From the NCBI GenBank assembly GCA_937910235.1, contig CALENB010000254.1:9690-73689 (forward strand): a stretch of DNA of 64,000 nucleotides. The letters are read 5' to 3'. Below the pieces are notes generated by a model. The model was given only the letters and a program-made list of their open reading frames with translations, was not told the origin of the DNA and did no database searches. Origin of the DNA: an uncultured Myxococcales bacterium (GTDB taxonomy: Bacteria; Myxococcota_A; UBA9042). This document shows, piece by piece, positions 20,071 to 64,000 of the stretch. Made by a program: the position numbers and the translations under genes. How positions within the stretch are numbered: position 1 is the stretch's first letter; each line of letters begins with the position of its first letter.

Positions 20071-22044
20071 ATGAATATGATCAGCAAGACCCTCGCCGCT
20101 GCCGCCATGCTGAGCCTCGTGCTCACGGGCTGCGGCGACAAGAAGAAGACGGACGGTGCCAAGCCAGCCGTGAAGACGGCCGCACCGGCCAAACCTGTCG
20201 CGGAGGCGCCGACCGAGTCAGCGATCCCGGCGACGATGCCCGTAACGGGAGGCAAGGACGCCCTCGTCACGATCATCGAGGTGTCGGACTTCCAGTGCCC
20301 CTTCTGCAGCCGCGTCGGACCGACGATGAAGCAGATCAAGGCGGCCTACAAGGATCAGGTCCGGATCGTGTGGGTCAACAACCCGCTCTCTTTCCACAAC
20401 CGCGCCAAGCCGGCCGCGCTCGCCTCCATGGCGGCGCATCGCCAGGGCAAGTTCTGGGAGATGCACGACAAGCTCTTCGCCAACCAACGCGAGTTGACGG
20501 ACGAGAACTTCAAGAAGTGGGCCACCGAGCTCAAGCTTGACCTCGCCAAGTTCGACGCCGACATGAAGGACCCGGTCCTCAGCAAGCAGATCGACCGTGA
20601 GCAGCAGGCCGCCCAGGCGACCGGCGCTCGTGGCACGCCCGGCTTCTTCATCAACGGCAAGCTGCTCTCCGGCGCTCAGCCCTTCCCGGCGTTCAAGAAA
20701 GAGATCGACTTGGCGCTCGAAGCCGCGAAGAAGTCTCGCGACGGCGGCAAGAAAGGCATGGCGCTCCTCGAGGAGACCTTCGCCGCGCGTGACGCCAAGA
20801 TTGGCCCGCAGGTGGTCGGTTACTTCTTCAAGGGCGAGAAGATCGTCGCCGCCGCGCCGGAGAAGCGTGAAGCTCCGAAGGGCCCGGTCACGCCGCCCAA
20901 GGACAGCTACACCATCTGGAAGGTCCCGGTCGACGTCAAAAACGACATGATCATGGGCAACAACGACGAAGCGGTCGTCACGATCGTCGAGTTTTCGGAC
21001 TTCGAGTGCCCCTTCTGCAGCCGCGGCAAAGACACCGTCACCGAAGTGAAGAAGCTGTACGGCGACAAAGTCCGCGTGGTCTTCAAGCACCACCCCCTCC
21101 CCTTCCACCGCAACGCCCGCGGCGCTCACCGCGCCTCGATCGCGGCTGGCAAGCAGGGCAAGTTCTGGGAGTTCCACGACAAGGCGTTCGCCAACTCGCG
21201 CGCGCTCAACGACGAGAACTACAAGAAGTGGGCCACCGAGCTGAAGCTCGATCTGGCCAAGTTCGAGAAGGACTCGAAGGATCCGGCCTCGGACAAGCAG
21301 GTCGTCAGCGACATGGAGATGGCCGGTACCGTCTCGGTGCGTGGTACGCCGAACTTCGTCATCAACGGTCGCAAGATCGTGGGTGCGCAGCCGGTCGACA
21401 TGTTCAAGGCCATCGTCGACGAGGAGTTGAAGAAGGCTGGCGACAAGAAAGGCCACGGCTACTACGAGGAGATCATCGGCAAGGGCAAGATCTTCAGCGA
21501 GCTCGACGCGACCGTTCATGAGTTTCAGGACATTGGGCTACCCACCAAGGGTCCCAAGAACGCGAAGGTCACGATCCACGAGTTCTCGGACTTTCAGTGC
21601 CCCTACTGCAGCCGCGTCGCCGCGCCCGTCGCCGAGATCGCGAAGCGCTACAAGGGCAAAGTGAAGGTGGTGTTCGCTCACTATCCGCTGAGCTTCCACA
21701 AGAACGCGCGGCCTGCGTCGTGGCTCGCGCAGCACGCCTTCGAGAAGGGCGGTGCGGATGCCTTCGGCAAGATCCATGACAAGCTCTTCGCGGAGCAGCG
21801 CGCGCTGTCGCCCGAGAAGATCGCGGAGATCGCCAAAGAGTTCGGCTACGACATGAAGGACGTCGAGGCCAACAAGGACAAGTACGACGCCATCATCACC
21901 AAGGCCATGGCCATGGGTGATAAGGCTGGCCTTCGCGGCACGCCGACCGTCTACATCAACGGTCGCAAGTATGAGCCTGGCGCGGGCTACACCCCGGCCG
22001 CGTTCAGCAAGACCATCGACAAGCTGCTCGCTGGCAAGCTGTAG
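20071..22044 (+). CDS. lipoprotein with three tandem DsbA-like thioredoxin-fold domains
   Basis: Lipobox LVLTGCG. There are three CxxC centres: SDFQCPFCSRV, SDFECPFCSRG and SDFQCPYCSRV. Each is followed by ..HPLxFH.. and ..GTPxFxINGR... Confidence 0.85.
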   Translation: MNMISKTLAAAAMLSLVLTGCGDKKKTDGAKPAVKTAAPAKPVAEAPTESAIPATMPVTGGKDALVTIIEVSDFQCPFCSRVGPTMKQIKAAYKDQVRIVWVNNPLSFHNRAKPAALASMAAHRQGKFWEMHDKLFANQRELTDENFKKWATELKLDLAKFDADMKDPVLSKQIDREQQAAQATGARGTPGFFINGKLLSGAQPFPAFKKEIDLALEAAKKSRDGGKKGMALLEETFAARDAKIGPQVVGYFFKGEKIVAAAPEKREAPKGPVTPPKDSYTIWKVPVDVKNDMIMGNNDEAVVTIVEFSDFECPFCSRGKDTVTEVKKLYGDKVRVVFKHHPLPFHRNARGAHRASIAAGKQGKFWEFHDKAFANSRALNDENYKKWATELKLDLAKFEKDSKDPASDKQVVSDMEMAGTVSVRGTPNFVINGRKIVGAQPVDMFKAIVDEELKKAGDKKGHGYYEEIIGKGKIFSELDATVHEFQDIGLPTKGPKNAKVTIHEFSDFQCPYCSRVAAPVAEIAKRYKGKVKVVFAHYPLSFHKNARPASWLAQHAFEKGGADAFGKIHDKLFAEQRALSPEKIAEIAKEFGYDMKDVEANKDKYDAIITKAMAMGDKAGLRGTPTVYINGRKYEPGAGYTPAAFSKTIDKLLAGKL

Positions 22045-48718: not shown

Positions 48719-50800
48719 TCAGCGTGCCTGGCTCTTCACCACCTGCTCGGCGATGTTGTTTGGCGCGGGCGCGTAGTGCGCAAACTGCATCGTGTAGGTG
48801 GCTCGTCCCTGCGACATGGAGCGCAGGTCAGTGGCGTAGCCGAAGGTCTCGCCAAGGGCAACTTCGCCGCTGATGACTTTGGATCCGGCGCGGTCATCCA
48901 GGTTCTGGATTCGGCCACGGCGGCGGTTGAGGTCGCCGATGACGTCACCCATGTACTCTTCGGGCGTGACACATTCGATGGAGAAGATGGGCTCCAGCAG
49001 GACAGGCTTGCCTTTGCGCATGCCCTCTTTGAAGGCCATCGAAGCGGCTGTTCGGAACGCCATCTCGCTCGAGTCGACGTCGTGGTAGCTGCCGAAGTTC
49101 AGCGTCGCCTTGAGGTCGACGACCGGGAATCCGGCGAGCACGCCAGCGTTCATCGCGTCCTGAATGCCCTTGTTCACGGCCGGGATGTACTCGCGCGGGA
49201 TGACGCCGCCCTTGATCTCATCGACGAACTCGTAGCCGAAGCCCGGCTCCTGTGGCTCCAACTTCAGCACAACGTGGGCGTACTGGCCGCGGCCACCGGT
49301 CTGCTTGCTGAACTTGTAGTTGACTTCATAGGGCTCGCGCATGGTCTCGCGGTAGGCCACCTGCGGTGCGCCGACCTGAGCGCTCACGTTGAATTCACGC
49401 TTGAGTCGGTCGACGATGACCTCAAGGTGGAGCTCGCCCATGCCCGAGATGATGGTCTGTCCCGTCTCTTCGTTCGAGGTCACCGTGAACGAGGGATCCT
49501 CGCGGCTCAGCTTGCCGAGGCCGTTGCCGAGCTTGGTCTCTTCGGTCTTGTTGTCGGGCTCGATGGCGACGCTGATCACGGGGTCGGGGAAGTTCATCGA
49601 CTCGAGGACGATGGGGTCCTTGCGGTCACAGAGGGTGTGTCCGGTGATCGTGTCTTTGAGGCCCGCGACCGCGACGATGTCGCCGGCGAAGACCTCTTTG
49701 ATGTCTTCGCGCTTGTCGGCGTGCATCTTCATGATGCGGCCGATTCGCTCTTTCTTGCCGTTGTTGGAGTTGATGACTGAATCACCCACCACCGCGGAGC
49801 CTGAGTAGACACGGATGTAGGTCAAGTGACCGACGAACGGGTCGCTCCAGATTTTGAAGGCGAGCGCTGAGAAGGGCGCATCGTCCGATGCTGGGCGCGT
49901 GAGCTTGATGTCTTCGTTGTTGGGATCGAAGCCTTCGAGCGGCGGCACGTCAAGCGGTGACGGGAGCAGTCCGACGACGGCGTCGAGGAGCTCCTGCACG
50001 CCCTTGTTCTTAAACGCAGAGCCGCAGAACATGGGGATGATGTCGAGCTTGAGCGTCGCGGTGCGAAGCGCGCTGTAGACCTCTTGCGGCGAGAGCTCTT
50101 CGCCCTCAAGGTACCGGCCCATCAGGTCGTCGTCTTGCTCGGCGGCAGCCTCGAAGAGTTCGATGCGGTGCTGCGCGACGAGCTCAAGCATGTCGCCTGG
50201 AACGGCTTCAATGCGGAACTCTGCACCCTGGCTATCTTCGTCGTAGATCACAGCGTGGTTGTTGATGAGGTCGACGACGCCGCGGAACGAATCGTACGAT
50301 CCGATCGGCAGCTGCATCGGCACGGGCCGCGCGCCAAGACGTGTGCGAATCTGCCCAACGACGTTGAGGAAGTCGGCACCAATGCGGTCCATCTTGTTGA
50401 CGAAGCCGATGCGCGGGACCTTGTAGGTGTTGGCTTGGCGCCACACGGTCTCGGACTGCGGCTCGACGCCACCGACTGCACAGAACACAGCGACGGCGCC
50501 GTCGAGGACGCGCAGCGAGCGCTCGACCTCGACGGTGAAGTCAACGTGGCCGGGCGTGTCGATGATGTTAATCGTCGTGCCCTTCCAGGTGCACTGCGTG
50601 GCTGCGGAGGTGATCGTGATGCCACGCTCCTGCTCCTGCTCCATGAAGTCCATGGTGGCGGCGCCGTCGTGCACCTCGCCGATCTTGTGAGAACGGCCGG
50701 TGTAGTAGAGCACCCGCTCAGTCGTCGTCGTCTTACCGGCGTCGATGTGCGCCATGATGCCGATATTGCGCATCGTCTTAAGCGGTATCGTGCGTGCCAC
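48719..50800 (-). CDS. fusA: translation elongation factor G
   Basis: ..[25 protein letters not shown].., ..[13 protein letters not shown].., ..FVNKMDR... 693 aa. GTG start after GGAG. Confidence 0.95.
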
Positions 50801-57342: not shown

Positions 57343-57514
57343 GGCTAAGGTCGCTCCTGGGAAGGACGGGGGATCCGTGGGTGGGAGCATCGTCGCGCCG
57401 GCCAGGGCGGTCAAACGTAATCGCCGCCGACGCCCCCTCCGGCGCATCGCGATCTGTGAACAGTGACGACCCGATGGGTGTTTGATAGAAGTCGTGCTGC
57501 CCAAGGAGAAGACT

Positions 57515-60500
57515 ATGCGCTCAGTGACCCCTCGACTACCCCATGTTCGCTCTCACGTGCCCCTGTTCTGCCTCGTGGCTGCGATGCTGATCGCTCCGGG
57601 TTGCGGCGACACGGACGGCGACACCGGCGACGCGCTGACGCTCCCCGGTGACGCGGCAGGCGACGGCGTGGCGTTCGACGGCGTCACGTTCGACGGTGGC
57701 TGTCCGAACGCCTGTGACGACAAGAACCCGTGCACGGACGACTTCTGCAACGCCGGGGTGTGCAGCAATCCGGCCAACAAGGCGACATGCGACGACGGCG
57801 ACGCGTGCACCGGCGGCGACCGCTGTAACGCCGGCGGCTGCGTCGGCAATACCAACCTGTGCGGCGACGCGGGCAGCGACGCGACGGACTCGGGTGACGC
57901 GGGCACAACCGACGCCGTGACTGGGCCACCGTTGAAGGCTGGCGATCTCACGATCACCGAGATCCTCTACAACCCTTACGGCGACGGCAAGGTCAGCGAC
58001 GGCGATGGTGAGTGGTTCGAGATCCGCAACGACAGCGGCAAAAACCTCGATCTTACGGGCTTGGTGATCCGCGACGACAAGAACGACAGCTACACGGTGA
58101 AGGGCACAAACACCCAGATCGCGGACGGCGCCTACTTCGTGTTTGGACGCAACGATGACAAGACACGCAACGGCGGCGTGGTGATCGATCACGTCTACGG
58201 CGCGGCGATCAACTTGGCGAATTCGCTCGACGCGCTGGTGCTGGAGAGCAACGGTGTCCTGATCGACAAGGTGCTGTGGGACAAGAGCAAGGGCTGGCCG
58301 TCGCTGAGCGGCAAGGCGATGCAGCTCAACAACAACACCAGCACGGCGACCGACAACGACGTGGCGACGGCGTGGTGCGCTGCGACCGAGATCTTCGGCG
58401 CAGGAGACGCTGGCACACCCGGAGCCGCCAACGGGACCTGCGACGCGAAGGACCAGGACAAGGACGGCATCATCGACAGCAAGGACAACTGCCCAGCGGT
58501 GGCGAATCCGACGCAATCGGACGGGGACAAGAACGGCGTGGGCGATGCGTGCGAGCCTGACGCGATCCCCGGCTGCGGCGACAACGTGCTGGTGCAGTCG
58601 GAAGCGTGCGACGACGGCAATCTGTTCAGCGGGGATGGCTGCAGCAAGTACTGCCAGCTCGAGGCCGAGTTTGGCGCAGGCGACTTGGTGATCACGGAGG
58701 TGCTGCCCAACCCCGCGACCGTCAGCGATGACGATGGCGAGTGGGTGGAGGTCTACAACGCGACGGACAAAGATCTCACGATCAACGGGCTGCGCGTGCA
58801 GGTGGGGACGGACAAGCCGTTCTGGAAGGCGGTGGTGTCGACCAAGCCGGTTGTGGTGAAGGCCAAGGGCTACGTCGTGCTGGGCTCGAACCTCGACGCG
58901 GCGACCAACGGCGGCGCGCCCGTCGATGCGACGTACGGCAAGCTCACGATCGGCAACACCGCCGCCACGCTGAGCCTGGTGAGCCGGCATGCCGACAAGA
59001 CGACCGTGCCGGGCGCGACTGACACGTATGTGGTGGTGGACACCATGGCGTGGGACAAGACCTGGAACGTGAAGGCCGGTATCTCCCTGAGCCTCGATCC
59101 AACCCAGACCACCGCCGCGGGCAACGACGGCAAGACCAACTGGTGCCGCGGCCAGTCCGTGTTCGGCGCGGGCGACCTGGGCAGCCCGGGCAAAGCGAAC
59201 CCATCGTGTGCGGGCTGGCTCGATGACGCGGACAACGACGGCGTGCCGGACGGTGTCGACAACTGCAAGCAGATCAAGAACCACTTCCAGACAGACAGCG
59301 ACAAGGACGGGCTCGGCGACGCGTGCGACAACTGCCCGACCAAGGCCAACGCCGACCAGAAAGACGGTAACGCGGATGGCATCGGCGACGCCTGCGAGAA
59401 GGTCTACTGCGGCAACGGCGTGAAGGATGGCGATGAGGTCTGCGACGACGGCAACGCGATCCCTGGCGATGGCTGCACGCCCGGCTGCAACTTCGAAACA
59501 CCGCTGGATGCAGGCGACGTCGTGGTCACGGAGTTGATGCTCGACGCGACCGCAGTCACCGACGCAGACGGCGAGTGGATCGAGCTCTACAACACGACCG
59601 ACAAGACGCTCGACCTGAACGGCGTGGAGCTGCGCAGCGAGAAGAAGGTGCACGTCATCAACGCTGGGACGGCCAAGGTCCCGCTCGCGCCGAAGAGCTA
59701 CTTGGTGGTGGGGCTCAACGCCGACAAGACCAAGAACGGCGGCGTCGTGATGGCCTATGGCTACAGCGCGATCGTGCTCACCAACAGCAAAGGGGTCGTG
59801 GAGCTGTGGTGGGGCAAAACGCTCGTCGACCGGGTCGCGTACACCAACGGCGCTGGCGGCTGGCAGAAGTTCGTCACGGGCAGCAGCCAGCAGCTTTCGT
59901 CCGACAAAATCAACGCGATCGCAAACGACGAGGGCAGCGCCTGGTGCAAAAGTAAGGTCAGCTTTGGCGCTGGAGACAAGGGCACGCCCGGTGGCGCCAA
60001 CGTGATCTGCCCGCCCGACAAGGACGCCGATGAGGCGCCGGACGCGACAGACAACTGCCCGAATCTGGCCAACGCCAACCAGAGCGACAGTGACAAGGAC
60101 GGCATCGGCAACGCGTGTGACAACTGCCCGACCAAGGCGAACGTCGACCAGAAAGACAGCGACAACGACGGGGTGGGCGACGCCTGTGTGCAGCTTCCGC
60201 AGGCCAAGTGCGGCGACGGCAAGATGGAGCTCGACGAGCACTGTGATGACGGCAACACGAAGGGCGGCGATGGCTGCTCGGCGGCGTGCACCCTCGAGCC
60301 GGCGAAGCTCGCGACCGGCGCGCTGATCATCACCGAGTTCATGGCGGACAGCCAGGCGGTCTCCGACGGCGATGGCGAGTGGATCGAGATCTACAATCCG
60401 GGCGCCGCCGACATCGACCTTGAGGGGTTCATGATCGCCGATGAGGTGACGGTGACCGGGCACGTGATCTTGGCGGACGGCAAGGGCGTCATCGTCCCGG

Positions 60501-61624
60501 CTGGCGACTACGTCGTGCTGGCGAGCAACGTGTCCAAAACCAACAACGGTGGCGTCGTAGCGGCGTATGGTTGGAGCGGTTTTGGGCTCAACAACGGCGG
60601 CGACACGATCGCGCTGATGAACCCGGATGGCAGCGTGATCGACACGTTTAACTATAGCTCCGGTGCGCAGGGGTGGCCGAAGGGCGCTAGCGGCGTAGCG
60701 ATGCACCTCAACAGCAGCAAGCTCAACGCGACCGACAACGACGTCGGCGCCAACTGGTGCTTGGCGACGGCGACGTATGGCAAGGGTGACAAAGGCACGC
60801 CTGGCTCGCCAAACGTCGGCTGTGTGACGACGCCGGTGCCCGTGTGCGGCGACGGTAAGAAGGAGGGCGACGAGGCGTGCGACGACGGCAACACCAAGGA
60901 CGGCGATGGTTGCTCCGCGAAGTGCGTCGTGGAGGTCGTCAGCGCCAAGCAGTCGGGCGAGGTGGTCATCACGGAGATCTTGTTTGACCCGAACGCGGTG
61001 ACAGACGCCAACGGCGAGTGGTTCGAGGTCTACAACCCGGGCGACAAGGCGGTCGATCTCAACGGCTGGCAGGTGGAGGACAAGGACGTCGGCGGCCTGC
61101 CGATGGCTGTGACCGGTACGAAGTTGCTGCTGCCGGCGAAGGGCTTCTTGGTGCTGGCGATCAAAGACGACGTCACCGTGAACGGCGGGGTGGCGGCGGC
61201 GTACGCGTATGGCAGCAAAATCGCGCTGTCCAACGCGAGCAGCGGCGGTCGGATCGCGTTGTTGAAGGCCGACGGCACGCTCGTGGACGAAGTGAAGTAC
61301 GAGACCACCGCCGGCAAGCTCGGGTGGCCTGGCAAGGTCGCCGGCGTGGCCATTCAGCTCGCCAACGGCCAGCGGACGGCGATCGGCAACGACGCGGGCG
61401 CGGCGTGGTGCTTGGCGAGCAAGACTTTTGGCAAGGGCGACAAAGGTACGCCCGGCGCCCTGAACGACGCGAGCTGTGGCGCAGCTACCCCGCCGCCGCC
61501 GCAGTCGAACAGCGCCGGTGCGTGGCAGGGGGTTCCGAGTCAGTTCAAGGCGGAGGCGGAGCTGTGGGCGCAGCTGCTGTGGTGGATCATTCAGCAGCGC
61601 TGGCAGCCCGGATTTCCGGCCTGA
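57515..61624 (+). CDS. giant modular lipoprotein with 5 x lamin-tail domain (LTD), TSP type-3 Ca-binding repeats and myxobacterial Cys-rich repeats
   Basis: AAGGAGAAG precedes the ATG at 57515. Lipobox LIAPGCG. LTD cores: LTITEILYNP..DGEWFEIRN, LVITEVLPNP..DGEWVEVYN, VVVTELMLD..DGEWIELYN, LIITEFMAD..DGEWIEIYN, VVITEILFDP..NGEWFEVYN. TSP3: D.D.DG..D..DNCP...N..Q.D.D.DG.GD.C. Cys repeat: CGDG....E.CDDGN...GDGCS..C. Confidence 0.85.
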   Translation: MRSVTPRLPHVRSHVPLFCLVAAMLIAPGCGDTDGDTGDALTLPGDAAGDGVAFDGVTFDGGCPNACDDKNPCTDDFCNAGVCSNPANKATCDDGDACTGGDRCNAGGCVGNTNLCGDAGSDATDSGDAGTTDAVTGPPLKAGDLTITEILYNPYGDGKVSDGDGEWFEIRNDSGKNLDLTGLVIRDDKNDSYTVKGTNTQIADGAYFVFGRNDDKTRNGGVVIDHVYGAAINLANSLDALVLESNGVLIDKVLWDKSKGWPSLSGKAMQLNNNTSTATDNDVATAWCAATEIFGAGDAGTPGAANGTCDAKDQDKDGIIDSKDNCPAVANPTQSDGDKNGVGDACEPDAIPGCGDNVLVQSEACDDGNLFSGDGCSKYCQLEAEFGAGDLVITEVLPNPATVSDDDGEWVEVYNATDKDLTINGLRVQVGTDKPFWKAVVSTKPVVVKAKGYVVLGSNLDAATNGGAPVDATYGKLTIGNTAATLSLVSRHADKTTVPGATDTYVVVDTMAWDKTWNVKAGISLSLDPTQTTAAGNDGKTNWCRGQSVFGAGDLGSPGKANPSCAGWLDDADNDGVPDGVDNCKQIKNHFQTDSDKDGLGDACDNCPTKANADQKDGNADGIGDACEKVYCGNGVKDGDEVCDDGNAIPGDGCTPGCNFETPLDAGDVVVTELMLDATAVTDADGEWIELYNTTDKTLDLNGVELRSEKKVHVINAGTAKVPLAPKSYLVVGLNADKTKNGGVVMAYGYSAIVLTNSKGVVELWWGKTLVDRVAYTNGAGGWQKFVTGSSQQLSSDKINAIANDEGSAWCKSKVSFGAGDKGTPGGANVICPPDKDADEAPDATDNCPNLANANQSDSDKDGIGNACDNCPTKANVDQKDSDNDGVGDACVQLPQAKCGDGKMELDEHCDDGNTKGGDGCSAACTLEPAKLATGALIITEFMADSQAVSDGDGEWIEIYNPGAADIDLEGFMIADEVTVTGHVILADGKGVIVPAGDYVVLASNVSKTNNGGVVAAYGWSGFGLNNGGDTIALMNPDGSVIDTFNYSSGAQGWPKGASGVAMHLNSSKLNATDNDVGANWCLATATYGKGDKGTPGSPNVGCVTTPVPVCGDGKKEGDEACDDGNTKDGDGCSAKCVVEVVSAKQSGEVVITEILFDPNAVTDANGEWFEVYNPGDKAVDLNGWQVEDKDVGGLPMAVTGTKLLLPAKGFLVLAIKDDVTVNGGVAAAYAYGSKIALSNASSGGRIALLKADGTLVDEVKYETTAGKLGWPGKVAGVAIQLANGQRTAIGNDAGAAWCLASKTFGKGDKGTPGALNDASCGAATPPPPQSNSAGAWQGVPSQFKAEAELWAQLLWWIIQQRWQPGFPA

Positions 61625-61654: not shown

Positions 61655-62416
61655 CTAGCGCCGATGGTCGCGACGGATGAGCTGCACGATGTGGCGCGCC
61701 CGCCAGGCCTGATGTTCGGTCAGGGCGGCGCTTTGACGCAGCAACGCCTCTTCCATGGTTCGCACGCAGCGACCATCAGCGAGCGTGGCGAGACAATCCA
61801 GGGCGGTCTCAACGCCAGCAAACGCCAGCTCCGGGGCCCGATCGCGCAGCTGCTGTGCGATGGCGTCCTGAAGTTCACCGAGCCCGAGGCGCGCGGCGAC
61901 AGTCATCGCGAGCAGCGACAATGGGATGTCACCGGCGACGATGGCGCGGGCGATCAAGCCGCTCAAGGGACCGTGGTTCGCCGCGGTCGCGTCGCCGTCG
62001 GCCTGGCGAAGGCTCTCCAGCACCGCCCACGTGGCATGGACGTCCGTTGCGGAGAGCGCCTCGGCGTGTCTGCGGAGGCCCAGCGCGGTGACGAGGTCGG
62101 CCAGGTTGACGTCCGACAGCGTCGTGACGATCTGCGCGGCGCGCTGGCTGCGCTGCCCGGCGGACTGCTGTAGATGAAGGGGCTCAGGGCGGGGCGGCGC
62201 GACCGGCTCAGAGGCCAGAAAGTCGGGCAGATCGTCGCCGCCAAAGAGATCATCGCTGCCAAAGAGGTCATCGCCGCCGCAAAGATCACCGCCGCCGACG
62301 CGATCATCGCCGCCCAGCAGATGGAGCGCCGCCGCACCAGTCACAGCCGCACCAGTCGCAGCCGGCACCCCTGACGCGATGAATGCTAGGAGGTCATCGA
62401 GCTCTTGCGGCGCCAT
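61655..62416 (-). CDS. hypothetical protein with N-terminal acidic (G)DDLF(G) repeats and a helical C-terminal domain
   Basis: ..GGDDRVGGGDLCGGDDLFGSDDLFGGDDLPDFL... GAGAGG lies upstream of the ATG. It sits 33 nt downstream of the TGA-containing gene on the same strand. Confidence 0.6.
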   Translation of the reverse strand: MAPQELDDLLAFIASGVPAATGAAVTGAAALHLLGGDDRVGGGDLCGGDDLFGSDDLFGGDDLPDFLASEPVAPPRPEPLHLQQSAGQRSQRAAQIVTTLSDVNLADLVTALGLRRHAEALSATDVHATWAVLESLRQADGDATAANHGPLSGLIARAIVAGDIPLSLLAMTVAARLGLGELQDAIAQQLRDRAPELAFAGVETALDCLATLADGRCVRTMEEALLRQSAALTEHQAWRARHIVQLIRRDHRR

Positions 62417-62449
62417 CTTGCCTCTCGGTCCGAGCCACGACGCGCGCCG

Positions 62450-63859
62450 CTAGTGCCCCGGCTTGCTCGGGTACTTCTTCTTGAACTTGGCGATCACCCG
62501 CACGACGCGCTTGTCGTCGTCGATCTCGCTGTTGAGCGGATGCATCGTCAGGCGCACGCGGCCAGCACCAGCAGGCGTCTTGACGTCGCCCGACAGCTCC
62601 AAATCGACCCGCTGCTGCTTGGCGCGCATCCGCGCTAGCTCGCGCTCCATGATCTTGCGGGACTGCGCCGTCAGCTGCACCGGAGAGCCCGGTTTGTCGG
62701 CGTTCTGCAGCTGTTCGCTGAGCTCGACCACCTGCGTGCGCAAGTTGGCCGACTGCTGCCGCAAGCTCGCCTTGAGATCCGCCGCCACCCATCGCTTGGG
62801 GTCGCTGCCTGGCGTCAGCACGATCTCGCCGTTGTACTTACCTTTCGTGAACGTATCGGCGAAATAGCCATCGCCGAGCCCAGCGATCTGCAACGTCAGC
62901 CCCATCGACGCGCTACCCAGCACCAAGTCGATACCTTTCACCTTCTCGCCCAGCAGATCGACCTCGCGCTGCCGCAGCGCCGACAGGCAGATCACCAGCT
63001 GGGCGCCGTTGCTTCGCAGCACACGAACCGCCGCCGCCGCCGCCTTGATGGGATCGTTCACCGCGAGCTCCCGTTTGGCGAAGAGCTCCCCGAGGGCCTC
63101 GGGAGCCGCCGTGACCAGCCCGAAGATGCCCACCTTCATGCCCCCGATCTGCCGCAGGACTGCGGGCTGAAACGTCGGTTTACCGGTCTTTTTGTCGACG
63201 ATGTTGGCGCTGACGAGCTGCAGCTTGTGACGCTTCGCGAGCTTCAGCAGCGTCTGTGGCGGCAGCACCATCTCATGTTCACCCACATTGAGCGCGACGT
63301 AGCCCATCGCTCGAAATGCGCCGAAGAACGCCTCCGCCCGCATCGTAGTTTTGGCCAGCTCCTCGCCATGAAAACGAGGGTTGGCCACAAGCCAGCCGCC
63401 CGTATCCACCGCGAGGGCGCCGAGAAAGCGGCTCTTTCGCTGATTCATCCACTGGGATCGCCGGGCAAGACCGCCCAACGGGTTACGCGCTCAACCGCAC
63501 GGGTCGGTCTCGGCGATCGCGTTGCCTGAAAACCACACGGCGAGGCTGCGCTTGTCCTCCGCTGCGGTGGGCGCGGGCGGGGCCGCCTCCAGACGCGCCC
63601 CCGCGGCGGCCGCGTTGGCGCCAGCTGCGTGCGCCATGGGTAAGGGGAGGCGGTCGTCTGGCTTGAGCTTGTCTGCCCGATCCACGAGGGACGCTTGATT
63701 GCGCAAGGCCGCGTCGAGCTTCGTGTCCAGCAACCGTGGCTGCACCACTTTGACGGCGCTGACGGGCGCGGGCGTGGTCGGCTGCTGACAGCCCCAGATG
63801 CCCATAGAGATGGTCAACATCGCGGCGAGCGTGCCGGCGATGAGCGTTCGCTTGTTCAT
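62450..63859 (-). CDS. lipoprotein with a degenerate metallophosphoesterase/5'-nucleotidase-like domain, containing an in-frame TGA (63491-63493): candidate selenoprotein or pseudogene
   Basis: GAGGAG lies 8 nt before the ATG at 63859. Lipobox TISMGIWGC. Two track ORFs share one frame and are separated only by TGA: ..AIAETDPCG-TGA-ARNPLGGLARR... Motif remnants: VWFSGN, AVDTGG, NVGEHE. Confidence 0.6.
63459..63480 (-). other. candidate bacterial SECIS hairpin
   Basis: mRNA sense: UGA, then 10 nt, then CGUUGGGC-GGUCUU-GCCCGGCG. The stem is 8 bp including two G.U pairs, which are C.A mismatches on the opposite strand. The loop contains GGUC, as in E. coli fdhF. Confidence 0.5.
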
Positions 63860-64000
63860 CGTTGTGGTCTCCTCACGGGCACGCCGGCCCGCGCTTCGCG
63901 CCGGAGCATAGTGGTTCGGCCGCAGGCAGGCTAGATGTAGCGCCAGCAATTGACCGGCCTCAGGTCCGTCGCTACCTTCCGCGCCAGCGTCCACCTTGTC

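Follow-up and report, generated by a model that had tools for sequence, protein, structure and literature searches.

A mis-annotated Myxococcales gene with a very probable in-frame selenocysteine codon: a short, cytochrome-less member of the UshA-like PCGU selenoprotein family

The window analyzed here is a 64-kb stretch of DNA from an uncultured Myxococcales bacterium, and nucleotides 62450-63859 of its minus strand form, with a probability of approximately 0.9, one gene for an UshA-like 'PCGU' selenoprotein of ~469 residues, which would be exported and would work in thiol/selenol redox chemistry. The in-frame TGA of this gene is very probably a real selenocysteine (Sec) codon with its own recoding hairpin. 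The original prediction had presented the product as a candidate new selenoprotein, but the family has been listed since 2008 (PMC2398784) and is curated as NCBIfam NF041198; the window gene is a mis-annotated further member of this known family and belongs to its short subfamily, which has no cytochrome domain.

Reading frame and parts of the gene

Inspection of the open reading frames of the window places 63491..63994 and 62450..63478 in the same frame of the minus strand, and, exactly as was noticed at the outset, only TGA and four codons lie between them. This TGA (63493-63491) is the sole break in the minus-strand frame that runs from ATG 63859-63857 to TAG 62452-62450. Read as a single selenoprotein coding sequence (62450..63859, minus strand), the frame comprises 469 codons and a terminal TAG, Sec falling on codon 123 (63491..63493, minus strand) in a P-C-G-U motif, an assignment based on conservation and on the Sec/Cys comparison described below. 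The nucleotide context is ..WFSGNAIAETDPCG-TGA-ARNPLGGLARRSQWMNQ.., which corresponds to ..ETDPCG-TGA-ARNPLGGLARR.. in the protein; TGC GGT (Cys-Gly) stands directly 5′ of the TGA, and GCG CGT AAC CCG, followed by TTG at 63478, directly 3′ of it. GC3 is of the coding type in both halves (0.79 and 0.83). A strong Shine-Dalgarno sequence, GAGGAG (63869..63874, minus strand), precedes the ATG by 9 nt, and no such sequence was seen 5′ of the downstream TTG 63478 or ATG 63448, so that the predicted difference between the two starts is borne out.

The encoded protein can be divided into three parts. First, residues 1-24 (63788..63859, minus strand) form a predicted N-terminal hydrophobic export signal with a possible lipobox, IWGC. 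The lipobox had been put forward as a feature of the gene, but Cys24 is missing in three orthologues, which keep the N-terminal hydrophobic segment. Second, a UshA/5′-nucleotidase-like domain of the metallophosphoesterase fold extends over approximately residues 105-350 (62810..63547, minus strand) and carries the PCGU loop at the position of motif I (DxH). Third, the C-terminal part (62453..62809, minus strand) consists of two long helices and a small beta/alpha unit, has no cytochrome domain, and terminates in the conserved ...KKYPSKPGH-COOH. In many other members of the family, clear lipoboxes are present.

Public gene calls split the window gene into a 122-aa ORF and a separate 332-aa 'hypothetical protein', as would be expected if translation stopped at the TGA to release a 122-residue exported peptide and the 332/342-residue ORF were a separate gene or an untranslated pseudogene. 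The downstream start without a Shine-Dalgarno sequence speaks against such an arrangement, as do the comparisons below. Reassignment of the genetic code was also considered and was rejected, because TGA serves as the ordinary stop of 13 of the 29 other genes in the window; recoding would therefore be specific to this site rather than the product of a variant code. A scan of the window for other genes with an in-frame TGA returned antisense artefacts only.

Conservation of the UGA codon and its exchange with cysteine

The TGA is kept in every orthologue examined. Downstream of the TGA, the window protein shares 53-71% identity with its closest relatives (P0002-P0006), and all of these have been called as 332-aa proteins from the same Met shortly after it. 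The orthologue contigs, which come from Myxococcales MAGs (L001, GCA_023954815.1; L003, GCA_030425545.1; L005/L006, GCA_002726535.1), each contain an in-frame ORF of 120-123 aa with the TGA in the identical column. The part upstream of the TGA is 42-55% identical in these orthologues, the flanks WFSGNxIxETDPCG and ARNPLGGLARRSxWM are kept around the codon, and the order of genes around the selenoprotein gene is kept as well. Distant full-length homologues (P0007-P0012 and P0014, 24-40% identity) have Cys in the TGA column, for example in ..GELIDCGCRQNPLGGLARR.. and ..GEVDPCGCLKNPLGGLARL... Comparison of the stop column among homologues thus gives TGA in orthologues and Cys in distant relatives, and the ..EPCGC.. 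forms that the original prediction had named for related lipoproteins do occur in homologues, together with ..DPCGC.. forms.

A wider survey of 185,579 species genomes, one genome per species, looked for the motif C-G-[U/C]-x-x-N-P-L-G-G-L-[A/D] with a degenerate DNA pattern. At least 118 loci match this pattern, and among the matches listed, which include one chance match (L031), 92 have TGA and 26 have TGC/TGT. Sec forms are therefore the majority of the sampled family members among the matches listed, whose taxa include Myxococcota, 'Deltaproteobacteria', Marinimicrobia, Acidobacteriota, Calditrichaeota, Planctomycetes, Eisenbacteria, and Chloroflexota. A second homologue search, carried out with a profile, found no further homologues.

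These data leave two separate genes, or a pseudogene, as a very unlikely explanation. Few codons of the family are as well conserved as the 14 that separate the TGA from the called ATG, and in Cys homologues these follow on from the upstream part without a break. Moreover, the TGA is found across phyla in the 92 loci among the matches listed, with both flanks conserved, a persistence that would not be seen with a nonsense mutation. The RNA structure downstream of the codon, which is specific to the Sec forms, points in the same direction.

A Sec-specific hairpin downstream of the UGA codon

A 9-bp hairpin with the apical loop G-GUCU (63459..63480, minus strand) begins 10 nt after the UGA, and it contains a family-conserved 7-bp core (63461-63478) that starts 12 nt after the UGA. 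The structure CGUUGGGCG/GUCU/UGCCCGGCG (63480-63459) is the minimum free energy (MFE) structure, at -14.6 kcal/mol for a 31-nt segment, and the antisense of this segment takes a different fold at -9.1 kcal/mol. Both parts of the earlier description, a hairpin 10 nt past the UGA with GGUC in its loop and a structure specific to the sense strand, are in agreement with these folds. The published model of the bacterial SECIS specifies a stem of 4-16 bp, a loop of 3-9 nt that has G within the first two positions, a UGA-to-loop distance of 16-37 nt, and an MFE of -7.5 or lower (PMC13188914). On all four bSECIS counts the window hairpin lies within the model, with a 9-bp stem, a loop of GUCU (or GGUCUU), a distance of 19 nt, and -14.6 kcal/mol. 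RNAalifold independently finds a 5-bp core, and a search of Rfam with nucleotides 62000-64000 gave no meaningful match.

The UGA-to-stem spacing in Escherichia coli fdhF is 11 nt, compared with 10-12 nt in the window. The two elements are also alike in being hairpins of the coding region just 3′ of the UGA with GGUC at the apex; unlike the fdhF SECIS, the stem of the window has no bulged U, and the sequences are otherwise unrelated.

Taken singly, the hairpin is unremarkable in GC-rich sequence: the 71-nt fold has a z of only -0.72 against shuffles in this window of 66% GC, and approximately 1.5% of the TGA trinucleotides of the window have a hairpin of at least 8 bp that starts 8-14 nt downstream. 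Comparison was therefore needed to establish the significance of the hairpin. The codons of the stem encode P-L-G-G-L-A-[RK]-[RK], a peptide whose conservation is just as high in the Cys forms, and the Cys genes hence provide a natural control for constraint at the protein level. For this purpose, 88 distinct Sec sequences were set against 25 Cys sequences, both sets being phylogenetically non-independent, and stem positions were numbered from the T of TGA as 0, which gives the core pairs 15-32, 16-31, 17-30, 18-29, 19-28, 20-27, and 21-26.

With this numbering, 81.7% of stem cells are paired in the 88 Sec sequences and 55.6% in the 25 Cys sequences, in sets that share ancestry. When the 3′ arm is slid, 39-51% are paired in the Sec set and 53.8% in the Cys set (slid by -1); pairing in the Cys genes is thus no better than in the slid control. 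Double-change cells number 52 in the Sec set against 24 in shuffles, none of 500 of which reaches 52, and they are not enriched in the Cys set, so that covariation among the TGA-containing sequences, one of the checks proposed for the hairpin, is clear. Of the core pairs, pair 15-32 is formed in 100% of Sec but 32% of Cys sequences, and pair 21-26 in 79% and 24%, respectively. The pair types in the Sec set are CG79/UA6/UG3 at 15-32, UG72/UA16 at 16-31, and UA37/GC29 at 17-30. At the loop, a GGT codon is used in 75/88 Sec and 12/25 Cys sequences and a CTN codon in 85/88 and 7/25, and these synonymous positions, fixed only in the Sec genes, yield the apical GGUCU. An MFE of -7.5 kcal/mol or lower is reached by the hairpin segment in 95% of Sec but 36% of Cys sequences. 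Among high-GC sequences alone, however, the total folding energies are close (-13.5 for Sec and -12.5 for Cys), and it is accordingly the specific pairing register, together with the low-GC lineages, that separates the two forms. The stem is extended by two outermost pairs, 13-34 and 14-33, that are clade-specific. Altogether, the sequence comparison supports a role of the hairpin as a SECIS that is specific to the Sec genes.

It is established that a hairpin downstream of a stop codon can promote read-through. The UGA might accordingly be read by a near-cognate Cys or Trp tRNA, or be passed by hairpin-stimulated leaky termination, in a bacterium that has lost the Sec machinery; indeed, a search of the 64-kb window and of the flanks of the loci examined found neither selA, selB, selD, nor tRNA-Sec, nor a tRNA gene of any kind. 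Nevertheless, read-through without Sec is highly improbable, for the GGUCU loop and its spacing fit the SelB-type bSECIS model, the site interchanges specifically with Cys, and the family has been curated as one of selenoproteins (NF041198; PMC2398784; PMC13188914). A sequencing or assembly error that turned TGC/TGT into TGA is negligibly probable, given the identical 90-nt context of the TGA in five independent metagenome assemblies from different samples (L125, L126, L127, L129, and L130) and the TGA in orthologues of three other species.

A phosphoesterase fold with most of its metal ligands replaced

A Sec residue at codon 123 would lie within a protein whose scaffold had been likened to calcineurin-like 5′-nucleotidases, and both profile and structural comparisons agree with this likeness. 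The family profile matches 5′-nucleotidase 2z1a (7e-21), YfkN, UshA, CD73, and SoxB (2e-12) in the PDB, and its match to solved 5′-nucleotidases begins exactly at NPLGGLAR. An AlphaFold model (AF2) of the Cys homologue P0007, which is 40% identical to the window protein, has a pLDDT of 80 and a pTM of 0.75, and Foldseek aligns this model with UshA, NadN, CD73, and SoxB at a probability of 1.0 over ~280 columns at 3.4-4 Å. The structural evidence for the fold comes from this P0007 model; a single-sequence model of P0010 reached a pLDDT of only 41.

UshA, 2z1a of T. thermophilus, CD73, and SoxB thus share the fold of the N-terminal calcineurin-like domain with the window protein, which differs from them in three respects. 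First, the ligands of the dinuclear metal center are largely replaced. Alignment to P0013/P0016 and 2z1a shows DxH changed to N113-A-I115, GD to G-G (in VDTGG, with the bridging D replaced by G155), GNHE to GEHE (N to E194), and GGH to GSA (GH to GS), and comparison with these bona fide 5′-nucleotidases agrees with the degraded motifs FSGN, VDTGG, and VGEHE to which the original prediction had drawn attention. Second, the C-terminal substrate-binding domain (PF02872) is absent, and a helical hairpin and a small unit are present instead. Third, the window protein has a Cys-Gly-Sec loop, which is absent from the four enzymes. Residues invariant in the family are E117, P120, C121, G122, U123, N126-R133, D152, G154, G193, N219, G247, D311, G340, and K341. 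From the alignment and the secondary structure of the homologue model, the C-G-U triad would be located in the beta1-alpha1 loop, which is part of the active site in the metallophosphoesterase fold.

Family membership and gene neighborhood

The window protein matches NF041198 (UshA_like_PCGU) with E = 7e-53 and 180 bits over positions 17-377 of 519, whereas Pfam gives no match, PF00149 and PF02872 included. The score falls below the curated cut-off of 275 because the window protein is short and has no tetrahaem cytochrome c domain at its C terminus; the cut-off assumes this domain, and NF041198 consequently misses the short subfamily. Members above the cut-off (L010, 363 bits; L021, 352; L012, 283) end in a domain that contains four CxxCH motifs and also matches cytochrome c-554-type models. 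The window clade (L017, 195 bits; L122, 180) and a short form from Marinimicrobia (L026, 227) have no tetrahaem domain, and there is no CxxCH in the window protein. In total, 22 of 93 complete family sequences carry the tetrahaem domain, and the C terminus of many short forms is ...PGH-COOH or a His-rich tail.

In common with NF041198, the window protein has P-C-G-U/C followed by NPLGGLA[RK][RK], a 5′-nucleotidase-like N-terminal domain with a helical region after it, an export signal, and Sec/Cys interchange with a SECIS in the same register. It differs in the absence of the tetrahaem cytochrome c554-like domain (profile positions ~380-519), in its ...PGH-COOH end, and in the loss of the GD and GH metal motifs, which are kept in L010-type members. 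A second family of the same superfamily, NF049981 or 'UshA-like (seleno)protein family 2', is weakly similar at 46 bits, below its cut-off of 140, and its motif is CxxU (PMC13188914), in contrast to CxU in the window protein. The NF041198 family, as 'COG0737, UshA-like' with CxU, was among 51 previously described families (Zhang & Gladyshev 2008, PMC2398784), and was represented in the GOS data by 76 selenoprotein sequences from 20 samples and by 92 Cys homologues (PMC2398784). The UshA-like CxU family, with NF041198, appears again in reviews of 2022 and 2026.

Clustering of the neighbors of 117 loci gave mainly housekeeping genes and no informative functional linkage. Cytochrome-fused forms have pal-ybgF upstream and tsaD-ksgA downstream, and the neighbors in Marinimicrobia are pepP, ispG, and tyrS. 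In the window clade, the gene is accompanied by that of a polytopic membrane protein, transcribed divergently and with a weak GT87 match, a 253-aa protein, and a giant LTD-repeat protein. The 253-aa gene (61655..62416, minus strand) starts 33 nt downstream of the selenoprotein gene, has no Pfam match, and is kept beside it within the clade; its product is a possible partner of the selenoprotein.

Proposed function and implications

By analogy with E. coli fdhF, the hairpin 10-12 nt past UGA-123 with its GGUCU apex would be bound by SelB-GTP-Sec-tRNA(Sec), and Sec would be inserted at codon 123 without termination to give ..ETDPCG-U-ARNPLGGLARR... The N-terminal hydrophobic segment of the window protein, together with the lipoboxes of its relatives, suggests that the product is exported, and the fusions to c-type cytochromes imply a periplasmic location. 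The protein would retain the N-terminal metallophosphoesterase fold of the 5′-nucleotidases and SoxB with its metal ligands replaced, and the Cys-Gly-Sec motif is then most likely an extracytoplasmic center for thiol/selenol redox or chalcogen-transfer chemistry and not a phosphoesterase site. A redox center had been proposed originally, and this idea has gained indirect support from the tetrahaem cytochrome c domain to which full-length family members are fused, while the chemistry itself, redox or chalcogen transfer at Cys-Gly-Sec, stays at the level of inference. A literature search for functional studies of any family member found none. The fused tetrahaem domain of canonical members could carry electrons, and the short form, which does not have this domain, would need a separate partner. 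It may be suggested very tentatively, as a rather doubtful extension, that the short Myxococcota form (...PGH) represents a distinct extracytoplasmic selenoenzyme module, in which the Cys-Gly-Sec loop, set on a gutted phosphoesterase fold, would carry out a novel redox or chalcogen-transfer reaction together with a separate partner, for example the 253-aa protein, in place of the fused tetrahaem domain.

As the family has been catalogued since 2008, the result is mainly a correction of annotation, and it reveals no new kind of system. The window gene and its orthologues have been deposited in truncated form, and in each case the two ORFs are to be merged with a Sec transl_except. For the family as a whole, the contrast between Sec and Cys genes on an identical peptide motif constitutes an unusually clean natural control for a SECIS that overlies conserved coding sequence, and the PCGU family is widespread across phyla.

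Annotation and variant forms of the family

In public records the orthologues of the selenoprotein appear as a 332-aa 'hypothetical protein' with a separate ORF of 120-123 aa (close relatives P0003 and P0006 from NCBI MAGs), and the genes of two Myxococcales MAGs are split in this way (L001, 9549-10952; L005, 1625-3037). Public annotation thus splits this selenoprotein systematically. Cys forms also occur in the window's own clade, at loci L101 (6212-6265, minus strand; ..DTDPCGCAHNPLGGLAKR..) and L033 (5135-5188, plus strand; ..DTDPCGCAHNPLGGLAKR..). The Cys form of L101 retains GGTCT and five of the seven core stem pairs, so that its hairpin looks like a relic SECIS, suggestive of a recent Sec-to-Cys switch. 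A further member, L020 (7581-7634, minus strand), carries both the TGA and an intact hairpin, and its frame closes 29 codons past the Sec codon; the most likely causes are a frameshift or decay of this copy, or a fault in the assembly.

In many members lacking the cytochrome domain, which come from various phyla, the C-terminus is ...[KR][YFW]P..PGH-COOH or a tail of the HHGHNH type, as exemplified by the ..PGH of the window selenoprotein (62453-62461, minus strand). In the cytochrome-fused forms, the equivalent position is occupied by ..SGH together with a His-rich linker. A C-terminal His could possibly act as a ligand.

Genomic context

The cytochrome-fused genes occupy a conserved slot, 3′ of genes for OmpA/Pal-like and YbgF/CpoB-like proteins, the latter of the TolA-binding, TPR type, and 5′ of tsaD and ksgA/rsmA. 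Depending on the neighbor counted, this arrangement was found at 11-18 loci among the matches listed, including L010, L027, L028, L045, L056, L059, L061, L092, L093, L106, L107, L110, and L120. In the 8-kb segments that surround members of the family (L007-L124, matches listed), ARAGORN detected tRNA-Gly (26), tRNA-Ala (12), and tRNA-Cys (6) genes, and no tRNA-Sec.

Elsewhere in the window, a 657-aa protein (20071-22044, plus strand) has three DsbA/Thioredoxin_4 domains in tandem, an unusual triple architecture of thiol-disulfide oxidoreductase type. GC content falls to 61-62%, against 65-70%, between 34000 and 48000, a stretch that corresponds to the ribosomal-protein/SecY/Adk/RpoA cluster, an ordinary feature; EF-G is encoded at 48719-50800.

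The selenoprotein operon is met convergently by a gene for a giant secreted protein of 1380 aa (57482-61624, plus strand), containing repeated lamin-tail (LTD) domains, Asp-rich TSP3-like Ca-binding repeats, and Cys-rich DUF4215 modules, and the synteny of this gene with the operon is kept in all orthologous contigs. Between them, 33 nt 3′ of the selenoprotein gene, lies an ORF of 253 aa (61655-62416, minus strand), which gave no matches to Pfam and whose N-terminal part contains Gly/Asp repeats resembling GGDDLF. Its homologues are located directly 3′ of the selenoprotein gene in L001, L003, L005, L118, and L122; in L101 and L062 they lie close by. The short-form selenoprotein may have the product of this ORF as its partner.
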